Source: an uncultured delta proteobacterium (GTDB lineage Bacteria; Desulfobacterota; Desulfobacteria; Desulfobacterales; Desulfosalsimonadaceae). Taken from it: a DNA stretch of 64,000 nt. The DNA is taken from assembly GCA_963826785.1 (NCBI GenBank), contig CAWGYD010000006.1, positions 832,001-896,000 of the forward strand. Reading direction: 5' to 3'. Both the position numbers and the translations under genes were made by a program. Shown here piece by piece: positions 1,207 to 8,751 of the stretch. Each line of letters begins with the position of its first letter. The stretch's first letter is position 1. Under the pieces are notes generated by a model, which made no database searches, was not told where the DNA came from, and saw only the letters and a program-made list of their open reading frames with translations.

Positions 1207-2580
1207 ATGCCGCATTTGATCGAGGAGAAGCTTACGGCTCTGGAGGCCGAAGGGGTCAACCAGGTCAAGATCGCCCTGACCGATATCGACGGCGTTTTGC
1301 GGGGCAAGTACCTGACCCTGAAGAAGTTCAAATCGGTGGCCCGGGCCACGGGCGGGTTCTGCGACTGTGTGCTGGGGTGGGACTGCGCCGATCAGCTTTA
1401 CGACAATGCCGCCTATACCGGGTGGCATACGGCCTACCCGGATGTCGCCTTCAAAATCGATCTTTCCACCGAGCGGCGCATGCCCGAAGAGGCGCACATC
1501 CCTTTTTTCCTGGGCGAGTTTGTCAGCGCCGATGACGACCTTCACCCCATCTGTCCGCGCTCCCTGCTGCGCCGGGTGCTGGAAAAAGCAAAAGACATGG
1601 GGTTTGGCGCAAAGTATGCCTTTGAATATGAGTTCTTCGTGTTCAAGGAGACCCCCCATTCCATCCGGGAAAAGCATTACCGGGATTTGACCCCGCTCTC
1701 ACCGGGCATGTTCGGCTATTCCATCCTGCGAAACACCTGGCTCTCCGACCTGTTCAACACTTTCATGGATTATTTTGACAAGCTCGACATCGAGTTGGAG
1801 GGGCTTCACTGCGAAACCGGGCCGGGTGTCTGGGAGACGGCCATTTCCCATGACACCGGCATCACGGCGGCGGACAAGGCCAACCTGTTCAAGACCTTTG
1901 CCAAGACCTTTTTCCAGAAGCAGGGCATGGTAGCGACCTTCATGGCCAAATGGTCCATGGACTATCCCGGCCAGAGCGGCCACATGCACCAGTCCCTCTA
2001 TGATCTGAATTCCGGCAAATCGGTGTTCCACGACCCGGAGGCAAAAGACGGCATGAGCGAGATCATGCGCTGGTACACTGCCGGGGTGGTCAAATACATG
2101 AAGGAATTTCTGGTCATGTCGGCCCCCACCATCAACAGCTATACCCGGCTTACCAAGGGGGCCTGGGCCCCCACTTCGGCGGCCTGGGGCATGGACAACC
2201 GGACTACCGCCGTCCGGGTCATTCCCGGAAACGACAGCGCCCAGCGCCTTGAATTTCGCATCGGCGCGGCCGACGGCAACCCCTACCTGGTGGCAGCAGC
2301 GGTCATCGGGGCAGGGCTGCGGGGGATCGAGGAAAAGCGCTCGCTTGCCGATCCGGTGAAGGGAAACGCATATGAGATCCAGGATAGGATGCCAGAAGAA
2401 CTGCAGCTGCCCACCTGCTTAAAGGATGCCGCCCGGCTGTTCAAGCACTCCGCGGCCGCCCGGGAACTGTTCGGGGACACGTTCGTGGACCATTTCGTCT
2501 GCACCCGGGAGTGGGAAGTGCGCGAATACGAGCGGTTTGTCAACGACTGGCAGCTGAAGCGGTATTTTGAGATTATATGA
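1207..2580 (+). CDS. Glutamine synthetase-like protein (probable gamma-glutamyl-amine ligase)
   Basis: EYEFF, HCETGPGVWE, ATFMAK..GQSGHMHQSL, DNRTTAVR, RLEFR..ADGNPY. Has KGAWAP where canonical GSI has PGYEAP. RBS GGAGG upstream. Confidence 0.88.
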   Translation: MPHLIEEKLTALEAEGVNQVKIALTDIDGVLRGKYLTLKKFKSVARATGGFCDCVLGWDCADQLYDNAAYTGWHTAYPDVAFKIDLSTERRMPEEAHIPFFLGEFVSADDDLHPICPRSLLRRVLEKAKDMGFGAKYAFEYEFFVFKETPHSIREKHYRDLTPLSPGMFGYSILRNTWLSDLFNTFMDYFDKLDIELEGLHCETGPGVWETAISHDTGITAADKANLFKTFAKTFFQKQGMVATFMAKWSMDYPGQSGHMHQSLYDLNSGKSVFHDPEAKDGMSEIMRWYTAGVVKYMKEFLVMSAPTINSYTRLTKGAWAPTSAAWGMDNRTTAVRVIPGNDSAQRLEFRIGAADGNPYLVAAAVIGAGLRGIEEKRSLADPVKGNAYEIQDRMPEELQLPTCLKDAARLFKHSAAARELFGDTFVDHFVCTREWEVREYERFVNDWQLKRYFEII

Positions 2581-2593
2581 CGCCCGGCGTTTG

Positions 2594-2702
2594 ACACCCC
2601 CCTGGCCCCCCTCAAGGGGGGATTTTGACGGGTGCCCATCTTTTCCCCCCTCGCCGGGGCGTGGATTTTTAATTCCCCCCTTGAGGGGGGGCAGGGGGGT
2701 GT
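2594..2702. repeat. REP/MITE-like palindromic element, copy A
   Basis: 29-bp terminal inverted repeats ACACCCCCCTG(G/C)CCCCCCTCAAGGGGGGA, 28/29 match; each arm contains its own C-run/G-run hairpin. Confidence 0.9.
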
Positions 2703-2740
2703 AGGAGCCTGAAAAATTTTAGATATTTAAAGGAAAACCC

Positions 2741-3892
2741 ATGAACCAATATAATTTTCCCACCACCATTTTATGCGGCCAGGGTGCACTGGCGGAATTC
2801 GTCAACCGGATCCAGGCGAAAAATCACCGGCATCTGCTCATCGTCACGGACCCGTCGCTGGTGACCTATGGCCTGGTCGACCATCTGACCCGGATGCTTT
2901 CTGAAAAGGACATGGCGCATACCGTATTTTCGGACACGCACCCCAACCCGGTGGAGGAAGATGTGGAAAAGGGGGCCGGGATCTTCCGGGACCAGGGGTG
3001 TGATGCCATCATCGCCTTCGGCGGGGGAAGTCCCATGGATGCGGCCAAGGCCATTAAAATCATGGCCGTGCATCCATTCCCCATGGAACCCTATGACGAT
3101 GCCAAAGGAGGCGACAGGAACATCGTCCATCCCATGCCCCCCCTGTATGCCATCCCCACCACCGCGGGCACGGGAAGCGAAGTGGGGCGCTCCGCGGTGA
3201 TCATCTTAAAGAGCACCGGCCGGAAAACCATCTTCTTTCATCCGGACCTGATGCCGGATATGGCGGTGCTGGAGCCGGAACTCACCACGAACCTTCCCGA
3301 AGACATTACCGCGGCCACCGGCATGGACGCCTTCATCCACTGCCTGGAGGCCTACTTTTCTCCCGGCTTTCACCCCATGGCCGACGGCATCGCCCTCCAG
3401 GGAATGGAGCTGATCCTGGACTGGCTTCCCCAGGCGGTCAAAAAGGGGCGCAACTTAAAGGCCCGGGAGCGGATGCTCATTGCCGCCTCCATGGGCGCCG
3501 TGGCTTTTCAGAAGGGGCTCGGCATGATCCATTCCATGGCCCATCCCCTGTCGTCCCGGCACGGGCTCCACCATGGCCTGGCCAATGCCCTGCTGCTGCC
3601 CCAGTCCATCGCCTTTCTGGAAAAGGCGGATCTGGACGCCGCCCAGATGGCGCGGATGGAGAGGGTAAAAGCCATGTTCGACAAACGGATCGCAAAGGAA
3701 AACAGCCTGTCCGGCCAGTGCCGGGCCTTCATCAAGGATCTTGGAATCGTGCGCGGCCTTTCCCATCACGGGATCGGCCCGGCGGACCTGGAAATTTTGA
3801 GCACGGAAGCATTTGAGGATCCCTGTCATGCCAATAACATGATCCCGGTGACCCGGTCCGACCTGTTGTCCGTGTACCGGGCGGCCCTGTGA
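2741..3892 (+). CDS. Iron-containing alcohol dehydrogenase
   Basis: GGGSPMDAAK, IPTTAGTGSE, TGMDAFIHCLE, HSMAH...HHGLAN metal ligands. Confidence 0.93.
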   Translation: MNQYNFPTTILCGQGALAEFVNRIQAKNHRHLLIVTDPSLVTYGLVDHLTRMLSEKDMAHTVFSDTHPNPVEEDVEKGAGIFRDQGCDAIIAFGGGSPMDAAKAIKIMAVHPFPMEPYDDAKGGDRNIVHPMPPLYAIPTTAGTGSEVGRSAVIILKSTGRKTIFFHPDLMPDMAVLEPELTTNLPEDITAATGMDAFIHCLEAYFSPGFHPMADGIALQGMELILDWLPQAVKKGRNLKARERMLIAASMGAVAFQKGLGMIHSMAHPLSSRHGLHHGLANALLLPQSIAFLEKADLDAAQMARMERVKAMFDKRIAKENSLSGQCRAFIKDLGIVRGLSHHGIGPADLEILSTEAFEDPCHANNMIPVTRSDLLSVYRAAL

Positions 3893-4590
3893 AAATCGCC
3901 CTGCTCCAGTGTGATCATGTGATGCCGGAACTGGCGGCCCATTTCGGCGATTTTTCTGAATTTTTCTCCAATCTGTTTTCCGCCCACTCGCAAGTTAGGG
4001 TCGCACTGGATGTGTTTGATGTGACGGCGCGCCGGTACCCGGACGATCTTGACGCCTATGACGGATTCATGGGCACGGGATCCCGCTTTTCGGTGTATGA
4101 CGACCTGGATTGGATCAAGGCGTTTTCCCGGTTTGTGGTCCGGCTGTTTGAAGAGAAAAGAAAATTTATCGGCATCTGTTTCGGCCACCAGATGATCGCC
4201 CAGGCGCTGGGGGGCAGGTGCGAACAAGCAAAAGCCGGGTGGGGGCTGGGGGCAAAAGAGATGTCCGTGTATCGCCAAAAGGACTGGATGTCTCCTGAAA
4301 AAGACCGGATTTTTCTGCTCATGAGCCACCTGGACCAGGTTTCCGCGCTTCCCGAAAATGCCGAGGTGCTGGCCGGAAACGAACACTGCCCCTATGGCAT
4401 GTTCGCGCTTCAAGATCATTTCCTGGGCATCCAGGGGCACCCTGAATTTAGCGCGCCATATCTTGAAAAGCTGATGGAATCGCGCATCGGCCGGATCGGG
4501 AGAGCAGAAGTGGACGGTGCGGTAAAGACCTTGGGCAATCCCACGGATGAAGCCGTGGTGACAAAATGGATGATCAATTTTCTGCGGTAA
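3889..4590 (+). CDS. Type 1 glutamine amidotransferase-like protein (probable gamma-glutamyl hydrolase)
   Basis: GICFGHQ nucleophile and QGHPEF His-Glu; GTGA overlap with the upstream ADH. Confidence 0.9.
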   Translation: MKIALLQCDHVMPELAAHFGDFSEFFSNLFSAHSQVRVALDVFDVTARRYPDDLDAYDGFMGTGSRFSVYDDLDWIKAFSRFVVRLFEEKRKFIGICFGHQMIAQALGGRCEQAKAGWGLGAKEMSVYRQKDWMSPEKDRIFLLMSHLDQVSALPENAEVLAGNEHCPYGMFALQDHFLGIQGHPEFSAPYLEKLMESRIGRIGRAEVDGAVKTLGNPTDEAVVTKWMINFLR

Positions 4591-4598
4591 CAACGATG

Positions 4599-4684
4599 AC
4601 ACCTCCCCTGACCCCTTTCAGGGTGGGAATTTCCGGCATTATTTCGGAAGCAACGCGCTGTCGATTTCCCTTGAGGGGGCCTGG
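4599..4684. repeat. REP/MITE-like palindromic element, degenerate copy B
   Basis: acacctcccctgacccctttcagggtggga ... ttcccttgagggggcctgg resembles the arms of copies A and C. Confidence 0.65.
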
Positions 4685-4731
4685 CTGTCAATCCTCGAAT
4701 TCTCAAAAATATCAAGAAAGCAGAAATCATC

Positions 4732-6576
4732 ATGTACGGTTTTACCGGAAAAATCCTGGTGGTGGACGTGGGCGAGAAAACCTTTATGGTCCTTGAGAAG
4801 GACGCGGCGTTTTATCGCAAATACACGGGGGGCGCGCTGCTGTGCGCGGCCCTGTTTGCCGGTCATACCGCCGGAAAGGCGCATCTGACCCCGTTTTCCA
4901 CTGAAAACCCCCTTGTTTTTGCCACCGGTCCCATGGCCGGGGGGAAGGTGTGCGGGGCCACCCGGGTCAACCTCATGTCCCTGGCGCCCGAATCGACCGG
5001 CATCTATCTTTCCCAGGCCGGCGGGGAATTCGGCCCGGCGCTGAAGCGGGCGGGATTTGACGCCCTGGTGGTGTCCGGCCGCTCGGAGCAGCCCGTGGTG
5101 GTGGTGATCGAAAATGAATCCGTGTCCTTTAAAGAGGCAACTCCCTGGTGGGGAACGGACCGGATCAGCGCCCGCAGCGCCATGATCGACGAATTCGGAG
5201 AAGATTTCTGCCTGGCCGTCATCGGTCCGGCCGGGGAAAACCGGGCCGTACAGGCCAACATCATGTTCGAGCCGGAGCACTACGCGGGCAGGGGAGGACT
5301 GGGCGCGGTCATGGGGGACAAGAAAATCAAGGCCATTGCGGTCCGGGGCAACCGGGAAGCACAATTCAGGGACCCGCAGGCCGTAAAATCCGTCAACCAG
5401 GCCGGCGGCAGGGCGCTTGCGCAGAAGATCAAAAAGAACCCCGGGTCGTTCATGGGGGTGTTGCGCCACCTGGGCACCTTCGGGCTTCTTTCCATGAATC
5501 AGAAATCGGGCAACCTCCCCACCCGCAATTTTACCGCCGGAAGTCCGAAGCATCCGGAGACACTGGCCTGGCTCTCCCCTCAAACCGCGGCCGATGCCTA
5601 CGTGGGCCGCATCAATCCCTGCAGGAGCTGTTTTGTGGCCTGCAAGAAGGGGTTCAAGGCCGATCCGGCCTACTCGTCTTTGGCCGAGTATGAGAGCGTG
5701 GCCACCCTGGGTCCCAACCTGGGGCTGGAAGATGATTTCGATGCCGGCCTGGCCGCGTGCGAACTGTGCAATCGTCTGGGCATGGACACCATTTCCACCG
5801 GCAACATGATCGCCTGGCTCATGCAGGGGTTCGAATCCGGGGCCATCACGGAAAAAGAGACGGGATTTGCCATGGGTTTCGGCGAAGGGAAGAAGGCCAT
5901 TGCGCTCATTACGGACATGGCATACCGGAAAACGGACCTGGGCAGCCTACTGGCGGACGGAATCGAGGCGGCCATCGGGCATTTCGGCCCACATACCCGA
6001 GCTTTCAGCCGATTTGTCCGGGGCATCGGCATGCCGGCCCACATGCCCGGCAAAAAACCGGGGATCGGGTTCGGCTACTTTCATGGGCCCAACCCCAACG
6101 ATCACATGAAAGCCGAACACGACTGGATCGCTTCGGACCCGGAGAGCTTAAACGCCCTGGGCGTGTCGGTCACCTCGGCCCCCGATGCCCTGGATAGCGC
6201 CAAGGTGGACGTCTACCGGGCCACGCAGTTCTATTATGCGGCCATGGACGCCTTAAGCCTGTGCCTGTTCGTGTTCGCCCCCGGAAACGTCTATTGCATC
6301 GAGGAAATCCTCCAGCTGGTCAACGCCGCCACCGGTTTTGAGCTTGACTTTACATCGTTAATGGAGATCGGTGAACGCACGGTCCAGCTCCAGCGCAAAC
6401 TCTACCTGGATTTCGGCGGCGAAGACGAACCCTGTGCGTCATTCGGAAAGGATGATGCCGGTTCTGCTGTCACCCGGGCGGAATTCGAGGCGGCCCGCAG
6501 GCACTACTACAACATCATGGGGTGGGATGAACAGGGCCGTCCGCTGCCTGAAACGCTTTCCCGCCTGGGCCTGTAA
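4732..6576 (+). CDS. Aldehyde:ferredoxin oxidoreductase family (W/Mo-pterin) protein
   Basis: N-terminal MYGFTGKILVVD, GRGGLGAVMGDK, CxxCxxxC (CRSCFVAC), EYES, LGMDTISTG, DALSLC, YY..MGWD..GRP. Confidence 0.9.
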   Translation: MYGFTGKILVVDVGEKTFMVLEKDAAFYRKYTGGALLCAALFAGHTAGKAHLTPFSTENPLVFATGPMAGGKVCGATRVNLMSLAPESTGIYLSQAGGEFGPALKRAGFDALVVSGRSEQPVVVVIENESVSFKEATPWWGTDRISARSAMIDEFGEDFCLAVIGPAGENRAVQANIMFEPEHYAGRGGLGAVMGDKKIKAIAVRGNREAQFRDPQAVKSVNQAGGRALAQKIKKNPGSFMGVLRHLGTFGLLSMNQKSGNLPTRNFTAGSPKHPETLAWLSPQTAADAYVGRINPCRSCFVACKKGFKADPAYSSLAEYESVATLGPNLGLEDDFDAGLAACELCNRLGMDTISTGNMIAWLMQGFESGAITEKETGFAMGFGEGKKAIALITDMAYRKTDLGSLLADGIEAAIGHFGPHTRAFSRFVRGIGMPAHMPGKKPGIGFGYFHGPNPNDHMKAEHDWIASDPESLNALGVSVTSAPDALDSAKVDVYRATQFYYAAMDALSLCLFVFAPGNVYCIEEILQLVNAATGFELDFTSLMEIGERTVQLQRKLYLDFGGEDEPCASFGKDDAGSAVTRAEFEAARRHYYNIMGWDEQGRPLPETLSRLGL

Positions 6577-7778: not shown

Positions 7779-7988
7779 AACACCCCCCTGACCCCCCTCA
7801 AGGGGGGATTACAAATCCATTCCTGACATACAGCGGGGCACCGCTTCCCGTTTCCAGCTAATGGCTTTTCCCAAATGGGGGATTACAAATCATTCCCTCG
7901 AGGGGCATCCTCCATCAATCCCCCCCCCCTCGAGGGGCATCCTTCCTTCTCCTCAATTCTCCCCCTTGAGGGGGGCCAGGGGGGTGTT
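7779..7988. repeat. REP/MITE-like palindromic element, expanded copy C
   Basis: Same terminal inverted repeats as copy A (7779-7808 and 7958-7988). Internal direct duplications gggggattacaaatc (7803, 7877) and ccctcgaggggcatcct (7895, 7927). Confidence 0.9.
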
Positions 7989-8751
7989 ACACGTTGGCCA
8001 ACGTCCCGCCGTCCACGTACAACGTTTCACCCGTGATATATCCCGAATCCCCGGAACAGAGAAAAAGGACCGCCCCCACGATTTCCTCGGGCTGGGCCAG
8101 CCGCCCCTTGGGGATTTTGGATGCCGCGATCTGCTCGATTTCGGGATGCGACCAGATGGGTTCGCTGAAACTGGTTCTGGTCAGTCCCGGACCCACCGCA
8201 TTCACATTGATGTTGAGATAGGCCCACTCCACCGCCAGGCACTTGGTCAGCATGTTCAAGGCCGCCTTGCTGATGTGGTAGGCGCCCATGCCGGCGCCGC
8301 CCCGCACGGCCCCCACGGTGCTGATGTTGACGATGCGGCCGCCCCCCTGTTTTCCCATGACCTTGGCCGCGGCCCGGCTCAGCAGCCACACCGCCTTCAA
8401 ATTGGTGTCAAACACCTTGTCCCAGCCGTCCTCCCGCAAATCCATCAGGGGGACCATGTAGCTCTTGGCTGCGTTGTTGACCAGGATATCCAGCCGGCCG
8501 AAGGTGTCTACGGCGGTGGCCACCAGCTGTTCGATATTCTGGCTGTCCATCAGGTCGGTCTGGACGCACAGGGCTTCGCCCCCCATTTCCCGGATTTCGT
8601 CCTGAACGGATTCGAGCTCGGTCAGGGTCCGGCTGGACAGGACCACCCTGGCGCCGTTTTTCGCCAGACCCAGGGCGATCACCCGGCCGATGCCGCGGCC
8701 CGCCCCGGTGACAATCGCCACTTTGTCCCCAAGATCATAATGTACCGGCAT
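7987..8751 (-). CDS. SDR family NAD(P)-dependent oxidoreductase
   Basis: TGAGRGIG, NNAA, YHISK (YxxxK), VDGG. Confidence 0.93.
   Translation of the reverse strand: MPVHYDLGDKVAIVTGAGRGIGRVIALGLAKNGARVVLSSRTLTELESVQDEIREMGGEALCVQTDLMDSQNIEQLVATAVDTFGRLDILVNNAAKSYMVPLMDLREDGWDKVFDTNLKAVWLLSRAAAKVMGKQGGGRIVNISTVGAVRGGAGMGAYHISKAALNMLTKCLAVEWAYLNINVNAVGPGLTRTSFSEPIWSHPEIEQIAASKIPKGRLAQPEEIVGAVLFLCSGDSGYITGETLYVDGGTLANV

Follow-up and report, generated by a model that had tools for sequence, protein, structure and literature searches.

Gamma-glutamylation of ethanolamine is known from Chromohalobacter salexigens, Agrobacterium tumefaciens C58 and Phaeobacter sp. MED193, and its named parts are ETAGA, GETADH, GAADDH, GGAH and the TRAP transporter EtoVWX (PMC10132767). 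The GlnA4 pathway of Streptomyces coelicolor is encoded by SCO1611-SCO1615 (PMC6529630). A defined physiological role has been given to only five of 92 clades of the WOR family, to which the aldehyde:ferredoxin oxidoreductases (AORs) belong (PMC13328260); the text and three supplements of that study do not mention glutamine synthetase, glutamyl, ethanolamine or amidotransferase, and the neighbourhoods in its Table_1 may hold such loci. Our literature search, with most subscription papers lying outside it, turned up no report of a glutamylation pathway that includes an AOR.

The window, that is, the whole 64,000-nucleotide stretch analyzed here, contains four co-oriented genes at 1207-6576, as the initial annotation had reported; all four ORFs are on the plus strand, and the Pfam assignments agree with the products it had named.

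1207-2580, plus strand: glutamine synthetase (GS)-like ligase, 457 aa (Pfam Gln-synt_C)
2585-2710, no strand: paired palindromic repeats, a long hairpin in the ligase/ADH gap (arms 2594-2625 and 2671-2702)
2741-3892, plus strand: iron-type alcohol dehydrogenase (Fe-ADH), 383 aa (Pfam Fe-ADH, PF00465 and PF25137)
3889-4590, plus strand: stand-alone class I GATase, 233 aa (Pfam GATase)
4600-4679, no strand: GATase/AOR gap, with degenerate copies of that palindromic repeat (families D1, 4600-4630, and D10, 4668-4679)
4732-6576, plus strand: AOR, 614 aa (Pfam AFOR_N and AFOR_C)

The GTG start of the GATase gene overlaps the ADH stop by 4 nt, bearing out what had been read from the sequence, and this overlap is retained in all nine of the four-gene loci compared. 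The GATase-AOR gap is 2-72 nt in eight relatives. The 160-nt and 141-nt gaps of the window locus contain copies of a palindromic repeat that is a genome-wide element (227 core copies) rather than a pathway-specific one, and the hairpin in the ligase/ADH gap folds at -85 kcal/mol. No ALDH is present among the ORFs of the locus, as had been claimed, nor is any transporter or regulator; no sigma-54-like site was found upstream, and a promoter and terminator scan returned counts no higher than chance. The genes are presumably co-transcribed. In several relatives, this four-gene subtype closely follows aspS.

We consider it probable, at roughly 0.6, that the cassette protects a small amino alcohol by gamma-glutamylation and then oxidizes it, with ethanolamine as the likeliest substrate and the AOR standing in for the NAD-dependent aldehyde dehydrogenase (ALDH). 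The replacement of ALDH by AOR, taken by itself and judged from sequence, is highly probable. In the proposed order of steps, the ligase would join glutamate to the amine, spending ATP, after which the Fe-ADH with NAD+ would convert the alcohol to gamma-glutamyl-aminoacetaldehyde. The AOR would then turn the aldehyde into gamma-glutamyl-glycine, passing electrons to ferredoxin and replacing the NAD-dependent ALDH of related cassettes, and the GATase would free glycine, recycling glutamate. What the sequences themselves show is the gene content, a conserved linkage, intact catalytic residues and an alternation of AOR and ALDH from locus to locus.

The ligase scores 310 bits against PF00120 and falls below the NCBIfam cut-offs for GlnA, GlnT and gamma-glutamylputrescine synthetase (213 bits against 429 for TIGR00653; 189 against 650 for NF045547). 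Its top PDB matches are 11ZS (245 bits) and 5DM3 (241 bits), with GSI structures at no more than 165; the ligase of a published-type ethanolamine operon scores 670 bits against 5DM3. By alignment, and judged by the residue list given in PMC6529630, the metal, glutamate and ATP ligands are intact (E140, E142, E203, E210, H259, H261, R314, R332, R337, E349 and R351 are retained) and the ammonium-site residues are lost, the pattern of a GS-like gamma-glutamyl-amine ligase. The alignment also verified two features noted earlier, the KGAWAP sequence at the flap position (residues 317-322, with W320 at GSI Glu327) and the lack of DGSS. P254 occupies the GSI N264 position, and the GSI hallmarks as a set (Glu327 flap, Asp50/DGSS, N264, Y179) are missing.

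In a quick IQ-TREE phylogeny the ligase forms its own clade, outside GSI, PuuA and the ethanolamine glutamylase/GlnA4 clade, the last of which is separate from the window-type clade with support of 100 for each. Identity is 29% to E. coli PuuA, about 35% to ethanolamine glutamylase/GlnA4 (34% to the GlnA4-type proxy L156; plasmid-operon proxies stood in for the characterized ETAGA and GlnA4 proteins) and 41% to an IpuC-labelled gene, the nearest annotated ligase. No oxidase is encoded at the locus. Of the PuuA and GlnA4 types that the initial annotation had cited as precedent, the ligase is an orthologue of neither; it belongs instead to a sister subfamily. An apparent 864-aa ligase-ADH fusion in L001 was rejected as an artefact of masked bases. 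Public records annotate the ligase as glutamine synthetase, and D66 aligns near GSI D50, in a region of uncertain alignment; even so, that it is a second true glutamine synthetase with unrelated neighbours is scarcely credible, given the missing Glu flap, N264 and DGSS, its distance from GSI in the tree, a linkage conserved across phyla, and a separate true GSI (DGSS, PGFEAP) on contig C8 of the same genome. We propose that it is a GS-like gamma-glutamyl-amine ligase of an uncharacterized subfamily, acting as an ethanolamine gamma-glutamylase.

The ADH contains GGGS at 94 as well as D196, H200, H264 and H278, which we take to be the metal ligands. It clusters with the ADHs of ALDH-type cassettes (25 rows, support 100), is 39% identical to the ADH of a published-type operon and falls outside the clade of the latter; it is proposed to be an iron-type (group III) gamma-glutamyl-ethanolamide dehydrogenase. 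The GATase, stand-alone and without a synthase partner, has the Cys-His-Glu triad (C97/H184/E186) of class I GATase-fold gamma-glutamyl hydrolases, as described for plant gamma-glutamyl peptidase 1, GGP1 (PMC12958103). GGP1 is also its best PDB match (9K7I, 102 bits, versus about 40 bits for GMP synthases), and it resembles PRK05665 but scores below the cut-off. Sister cassettes carry Peptidase C26 or M20 in its place, and the GATase is proposed to be a gamma-glutamyl-glycine hydrolase. A PF07722 search found a C26 hydrolase elsewhere in three of four genomes whose cassette has none, which is only suggestive.

The AOR is about 29% identical to 1AOR (TM 0.84), and about 29% or less to every solved family member; its AlphaFold model (pLDDT 76, low near the active site) confirms the fold only. 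With AFOR N and C domains, four Fe-S cysteines and no WorS partner, it has the features of a Class I AOR/WOR. The cysteines (C297, C300, C304, C511) and T249, E319, Y320, E321 and H458 are invariant in 120 of 120 homologues. Relative to the second shell of P. furiosus AOR (Thr243, Glu313, Tyr427, His448), T249, E321 and H458 are kept and H437 occupies the position of Tyr427, a change that also occurs in an active aldehyde-oxidizing AOR and in WOR5 (PMC12096430); the second shell was counted as that of an aldehyde-oxidizing AOR. It is proposed to be a gamma-glutamyl-aminoacetaldehyde:ferredoxin oxidoreductase of the single-subunit AOR/WOR family, with tungsten as the probable metal and ferredoxin as the probable acceptor.

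This AOR belongs to an uncharacterized clade with the motif DHMxxEHDW, which has support of 98 in a mixture-model tree; the EHDW AORs form two groups in FastTree and are joined only in the mixture-model tree. The motif lies beside the catalytic His and does not vary within the clade; sister clades without a ligase differ there. A ligase adjoins the AOR at 27 of 32 informative EHDW loci, and an ALDH at none of 46; as a control, neither a ligase nor a hydrolase occurs at any of 19 loci of the closest AORs that do not carry the motif. The ligase is absent from the other five informative loci, and no intact ligase of this kind was found in G711 or G018, but the ligase-less loci still hold a C26 or GATase gamma-glutamyl hydrolase plus EtoX or a phosphodiesterase. 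A first tree, whose outgroup consisted only of the genome's own paralogues, exaggerated the specificity of the clade. The wider AOR clade was rejected as a ligase-linked group, and the claim is limited to the EHDW clade because a wider profile search revealed a large sister group without ligase.

Conservation of the AOR with the other three genes is borne out by a neighbourhood search. Among the 80 best ligase loci, seven combine AOR, ADH and GATase, 13 combine ALDH and ADH, and none has both oxidizing enzymes; at 47 of the 80, a symporter, ligase and GATase occur with no dehydrogenase nearby, and five such genomes searched for the ADH had no close orthologue (best 44%). These loci are not independent, many coming from a few genera. 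The seven AOR-type loci are from Desulfobacterales/Deltaproteobacteria and share the order ligase, Fe-ADH, GATase, AOR, with ligases 76-77% identical to that of the window; the 13 ALDH-type loci come from other phyla. AOR-linked ligases fall at three places in the ligase tree, two of them adjoining ALDH-linked ligases. The pairing of AOR with a ligase persists even as the partners around it vary: the hydrolase may be a GATase, C26 or M20 enzyme, and the alcohol dehydrogenase may belong to either of two Fe-ADH clades or be an SDR. The mutual exclusion of AOR and ALDH raised by the initial annotation thus holds per locus (0 of 80; 0 of 46) but has exceptions at the level of the genome: G168, G206 and G379, all of one genus, carry this AOR plus a 48-50% orthologue of the cassette ALDH at separate loci. 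Elsewhere, no such orthologue was found in the window's own genome (best 27-31%; 88% complete) or, above 31% identity, in four of five AOR-cassette genomes tested. With a ligase that stands apart from GSI and an AOR that is conserved beside it, the idea that AOR takes the place of ALDH survives both sequence-based checks.

Conceivably, the AOR could be a general aldehyde scavenger, or a generic ADH-AOR pair attached to a ligase-GATase module, with ALDH acting in trans or with hydrolysis before the oxidations; in the Ipu pathway, the hydrolase acts ahead of them. The genome does hold further ADH-AOR pairs (C10, C8) and eight other AOR-like genes, one genus retains a matching ALDH, and among order-level AOR orthologues Fe-ADH adjoins 13 of 13 and the ligase only nine (10 counting a contig break). 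We nevertheless regard this arrangement as quite improbable, in view of two loci (L139, L142) in which the AOR after the ligase bears the motif and is accompanied by an SDR instead of an Fe-ADH, the gamma-glutamyl hydrolases and EtoX or phosphodiesterase kept by ligase-less loci, the absence of a cassette-ALDH orthologue from the window's genome, and the clade-invariant motif by the catalytic His.

Neither the locus nor the genome has a recognized ethanolamine transporter (the latter gave no EtoX or TIGR00908 match), and the substrate is therefore judged from relatives. The TRAP binding protein of one sister cassette (L137) scores 517 bits against 4UAB, the ethanolamine-bound Csal_0678 (PMC12410723). 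Its orthologue, EtoX, comes after the AOR in L131, L178, L100 and L082, and adjoins eutB in all three other genomes of the phylum that possess it; the sister AOR cassettes with EtoX also carry a 59% GETADH-type ADH. The permeases beside ALDH-type L038 and L176 exceed the TIGR00908 ethanolamine permease cut-off (426 and 553 against 382), the ligase and ADH of L038 being 63% and 55% identical to those of the window, and a glycerophosphodiester phosphodiesterase adjoins the AOR in L177 and L202. Conversion of ethanolamine to glycine is our best guess because sister cassettes carry the ethanolamine-binding TRAP orthologue or an ethanolamine permease, and the earlier naming of ethanolamine as an example substrate gains support from these genes.

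The same four steps, with AOR in the ALDH slot, could serve another amino alcohol (3-aminopropanol, 4-aminobutanol, alaninol, serinol) or several. Neither the ligase nor the ADH groups with its published ethanolamine counterparts, an IpuC-labelled gene is the closest annotated ligase, and members of the ligase clade lie beside polyamine ABC importers (with class III aminotransferases, in L149 and L150), an HDAC-family deacetylase (L151) or a GMC oxidase (L152), the window locus itself having no transporter. This substrate range nonetheless seems rather unlikely: the polyamine-type neighbours occur in loci without Fe-ADH, and the substrate-assignable transporters in ADH-bearing cassettes of the clade are an ethanolamine permease or the EtoX orthologue (L038, L176, L131, L137).

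AORs are reversible, so the cassette might run reductively, converting glutamylated glycine first to the aldehyde and then to the amino alcohol, which would make it either an electron sink or a biosynthetic route. Anaerobes are known to reduce acids with AOR and ADH together, and the subtype, close behind aspS in those relatives, has no importer or regulator. We consider this very improbable, since sister cassettes with orthologous AOR carry ethanolamine importers and the ALDH that accompanies the same ligase, ADH and GATase in matching cassettes is essentially irreversible.

Returning to oxidation of ethanolamine, the genome (88% complete) has no EutB or BMC match, and a search for the glycine decarboxylase P protein found none; a tupAB-like locus on C8 lies below the NCBIfam cut-offs (241 against 400; 181 against 320). 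More tentatively, and at slightly less than even odds, the DHMxxEHDW AORs may be one dedicated clade of gamma-glutamyl-aminoacetaldehyde:ferredoxin oxidoreductases, linked on several occasions to differing sets of ligase, hydrolase and alcohol dehydrogenase, which would give anaerobes a B12-free route from phospholipid-derived ethanolamine to glycine, NADH and reduced ferredoxin. The source names of motif-bearing homologues include Planctomycetota, KSB1, Thermoleophilia and Asgard archaea (names only, not gene context), so the route may reach well beyond Desulfobacterota. If correct, this would give one more WOR clade a named substrate, together with a diagnostic motif and an assay that is simple to run, and would extend ethanolamine gamma-glutamylation beyond Chromohalobacter, Agrobacterium, Phaeobacter and Streptomyces, the sources described so far, to anaerobes that lack eut genes, in which coupling to low-potential ferredoxin would offset the ATP cost of the ligase. 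The lineage-wise alternation of ALDH and AOR within the same gene families is a clean example of enzyme replacement, in genes that annotation pipelines currently label glutamine synthetase, GMP synthase and generic AOR.

The Puu/Pau polyamine and Ipu isopropylamine pathways likewise glutamylate, oxidize and hydrolyze, and PuuD-type C26 hydrolases occur in sister AOR cassettes, but those pathways rely on ALDH for the second oxidation only, the first falling to an oxidase or a P450. In the GlnA4 pathway, the same four steps are proposed, ending in glycine and glutamate, and there too the ligase retains its metal, glutamate and ATP ligands and has an aromatic residue in place of the E327 flap (F331 in GlnA4 and W296 in PauA7, matching W320 here; PMC6529630); that pathway uses an SDR and an ALDH, and its ligase is in a different clade. 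Like the Class I WORs (PfAOR, BmWOR, PfGAPOR), the window AOR is a single large subunit of the same fold, with no small Fe-S partner at the locus, and keeps the four Fe-S cysteines and the second-shell Thr, Glu and His (PMC13328260, PMC12096430). It differs from them in the Tyr427-to-His change, the clade-specific DHMxxEHDW and an amine-pathway setting as opposed to general aldehyde detoxification; for a WOR taking over a pathway step from an NAD enzyme, GAPOR provides a precedent.

The closest likeness in parts is to ethanolamine gamma-glutamylation, which also comprises a GS-like ligase (the type of the window ligase's best PDB matches), an iron-type ADH, aldehyde oxidation and a gamma-glutamyl hydrolase. 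The window clusters ligase, alcohol dehydrogenase and hydrolase in the same way and has an AOR where that pathway has an NAD-dependent ALDH. Its ligase is from a sister subfamily (35%) and its ADH from another clade (39%), the hydrolase is a GGP1-like class I GATase rather than an N-formylglutamate amidohydrolase, the locus is without TRAP or RpiR, and the host lineage is anaerobic, unlike those of the published operons. The initial annotation had seen novelty in a route free of O2, B12 and a microcompartment, but the published ligase-FeADH-ALDH-hydrolase route, being NAD-linked, already has this independence. The new element is the AOR, within a known pathway.

Four open reading frames make up the cassette, just as the initial annotation described it (1207-6576), flanked by aspS on one side and a convergent marC on the other:
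1207-2580, co-oriented with the other three: glutamine synthetase (GS)-like ligase
2741-3892, co-oriented with the other three: iron-type alcohol dehydrogenase (Fe-ADH)
3889-4590, co-oriented with the other three: class I GATase
4732-6576, co-oriented with the other three: aldehyde:ferredoxin oxidoreductase (AOR)
The 4-nt ADH/GATase overlap is retained at 9/9 loci, and the GATase-AOR gap is 2-72 nt in eight relatives. The window's intergenic gaps, of 160 and 141 nt, both contain a palindromic repeat that has 227 core copies across the genome (88% complete; nearest relatives within the Desulfobacterales). Judged from sequence, gene spacing and overlap fit an operon. The repeat is GC-rich, REP- or MITE-like and intergenic (2585-2710, 4600-4679 and 7780-7993); a different, 28-nt inverted repeat at 1059-1137, between aspS and the ligase gene, could influence read-through.

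In a residue alignment, the ligase retains the six metal ligands as well as the arginines that bind glutamate and ATP. It has Trp320 at the flap position of GSI Glu327, Pro254 in place of Asn264 and no DGSS, which bears out the proposed absence of the GSI flap glutamate and of DGSS. PMC6529630 gives the same pattern for GlnA4 and PauA7. A quick IQ-TREE phylogeny (74 rows, with ethanolamine glutamylase/GlnA4 represented by proxies) places it in a 57-row clade (support 100) separate from GSI, PuuA, IpuC-annotated genes and those proxies, so that the comparison with GlnA, PuuA and GlnA4 proposed at the outset sets it apart from all three. True GSI is encoded separately, on contig C8 of the same genome. 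Against 5DM3, which we take to be Csal_0679, the window's ligase scores 241 bits versus 670 for the ligase of a published-type ethanolamine operon. Residue pattern, tree placement and 5DM3 scores together mark it as a predicted amine ligase that belongs to a sister subfamily without characterised members.

The remaining enzymes can be compared similarly. The GATase triad (Cys97-His184-Glu186; triad as in PMC12958103) is intact. Among solved structures, plant gamma-glutamyl peptidase 1 comes closest to this GATase, at 102 bits versus about 40 for GMP synthases. The ADH clusters with those of cassettes carrying an NAD-linked aldehyde dehydrogenase (ALDH), away from that of the published operon. 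The AOR shows the fold of its family (TM 0.84 to 1AOR), and 120/120 homologues keep the four Fe-S cysteines together with the second-shell Thr, Glu and His. His occupies the Tyr427 position, a change present in another, active AOR according to the accessible text of PMC12096430. Residue 440 (5980-6070), three residues past the active-site His437, is Gly where 109/120 homologues have Arg. No small Fe-S subunit adjoins the AOR, which places it in Class I as defined by PMC13328260. We infer that its metal is tungsten; a tupAB-like locus in the genome scores below cut-offs.

A scan of representative genomes returned 468 ligase relatives, and among the best 80 the ligase-ADH-GATase-AOR set recurs at 7 loci, upholding the suggested linkage of the AOR to the other three genes. 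Thirteen loci carry ALDH-ligase-ADH (Verrucomicrobiota, Planctomycetota, Spirochaetota, Fibrobacterota; GATase visible in 8), 47 carry symporter-ligase-GATase without a dehydrogenase, 13 are other or incomplete, and AOR and ALDH occur together at none. The mutual exclusivity proposed as a check therefore holds within loci but not in every genome: G168, G206 and G379 keep a cassette-ALDH orthologue (48-50%) elsewhere. The window's genome, G134, G262, G392 and G037 yielded nothing above 31%. The 47 symporter-type loci (within L008-L080, e.g. L057:5900-10200), from marine Gammaproteobacteria of the Pseudomonadales/OM182 type, carry DUF4212, TIGR03648 sodium/solute symporter, ligase (60-67%) and GATase, with no ADH, ALDH or AOR in the vicinity; the symporter may transport the same amine.

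Within the order, 13 of 401 genomes have an AOR orthologue, always adjacent to Fe-ADH (13/13), with the ligase at 9, probably at 1 more across a contig break, and absent at 3. AOR-linked ligases occupy three positions on the ligase tree, and their loci vary in hydrolase (GATase, Peptidase C26 or M20) and dehydrogenase (Fe-ADH or SDR). One genome, 77% complete (G044), has ligase and ADH only. Stops interrupt the ligase genes of L140 (G375) and L224 (G018), which suggests pathway decay in some genomes, or assembly errors.

All cassette-linked AORs compared share DHMxxEHDW, adjoining the catalytic His. Among 46 motif-bearing loci (known duplicates removed), ALDH is found at none. Of these loci 32 are informative, meaning that they show a ligase or include 3.5 kb or more of upstream sequence; 27 of the 32 have the ligase and 5 lack it. 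As a control, 20 of the 69 matches to an AOR profile in 401 phylum genomes were taken by score and extent of contig; 19 lack the motif, and none of these 19 has a ligase or hydrolase at its locus, the motif-bearing and control loci being non-independent samples. FastTree places motif-bearing AORs in two groups inside the wider family, and a mixture-model tree unites them (support 98). G206 and G379 encode a published-type ligase with convergent ALDH elsewhere in the genome; in G711 and G018 no intact ligase candidate was found. A large, often multi-copy AOR group of other Desulfobacterota families (L203-L221) has motifs such as DHIEAPHDT and varied neighbours.

The window's locus has no transporter, and the substrate evidence is therefore drawn from relatives. 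The TRAP binding protein of L137 matches 4UAB with 517 bits (next match, 66); 4UAB is Csal_0678 with ethanolamine bound (PMC12410723, available in part). L131 combines the same TRAP system with ligase, ADH, C26 and an AOR that shares 52% identity with that of the window. An EtoX-type TRAP system directly precedes eutB in all three of the other Desulfobacterota genomes in which the binding protein occurs (L157:8495-13764; L158:8639-13193; L159:8500-14039), with eutC seen in two, and this transporter therefore serves both ethanolamine routes. Permeases adjacent to two ALDH-type cassettes, L038 and L176, exceed the ethanolamine permease cut-off; L038 shares its subtype with the window's cassette (identities: ligase 63%, ADH 55%, GATase 39%). 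Glycerophosphodiester phosphodiesterases flank AOR or ligase in L177, L202, L196 and L197, where they recur with a PotD-like ABC importer and GATase, joined to ADH-AOR or to ligase; this module may serve to take up glycerophosphoethanolamine. Searches of the window's genome (88% complete) found neither EutB nor BMC genes.

Membership of the ligase clade does not by itself specify the amine, because the neighbours of other members include a deacetylase, a GMC oxidase, or aminotransferases together with polyamine importers. On alphaproteobacterial plasmids (L149, L150), same-clade ligases have a polyamine ABC importer, a P1 peptidase and a class III aminotransferase as neighbours, which may form a diamine route that needs no oxidase. 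A third cassette type (L139:1-11500, L141, L142) comprises an RpiR regulator, branched-chain-type ABC importer, ligase (33-36%), motif-bearing AOR, SDR and M20 peptidase; no close solved relative of its binding protein was found, and its substrate may therefore differ.

The cassette most likely encodes a four-step ethanolamine route, every reaction of which we infer, with the AOR as third enzyme. The ligase would convert ethanolamine, glutamate and ATP to gamma-glutamyl-ethanolamide, which the ADH would oxidise to the aldehyde, yielding NADH; the AOR would then form gamma-glutamyl-glycine and reduced ferredoxin, and the GATase would release glycine and glutamate. Acylation protects an otherwise unstable aminoaldehyde. 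SHMT is present in the 88%-complete genome, in which glycine decarboxylase was not found. The window's subtype lacks a regulator or importer and lies close to aspS in some relatives, suggesting, as a guess, salvage of endogenous or diffusing ethanolamine.

The logic of glutamylation is already published, and the published route needs no O2, B12 or microcompartment, so the novelty first suggested for such a route narrows to the AOR step, of which no description in a gamma-glutamylation pathway was found in the literature searched. A review of the pathway (PMC9397018) does not mention ferredoxin or tungsten, and the text and three supplements of the 2026 WOR classification (PMC13328260) do not mention the cassette's partner genes. 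New here are the alternation of AOR and ALDH on a single ligase tree, an AOR motif of diagnostic value that was checked against a negative control, and evidence from transporter genes that points to ethanolamine. Compared with the published route, as proposed in the available parts of PMC10132767 and PMC6529630, the sequence of steps would be alike, and the third enzyme is exchanged for an AOR in the window's cassette.
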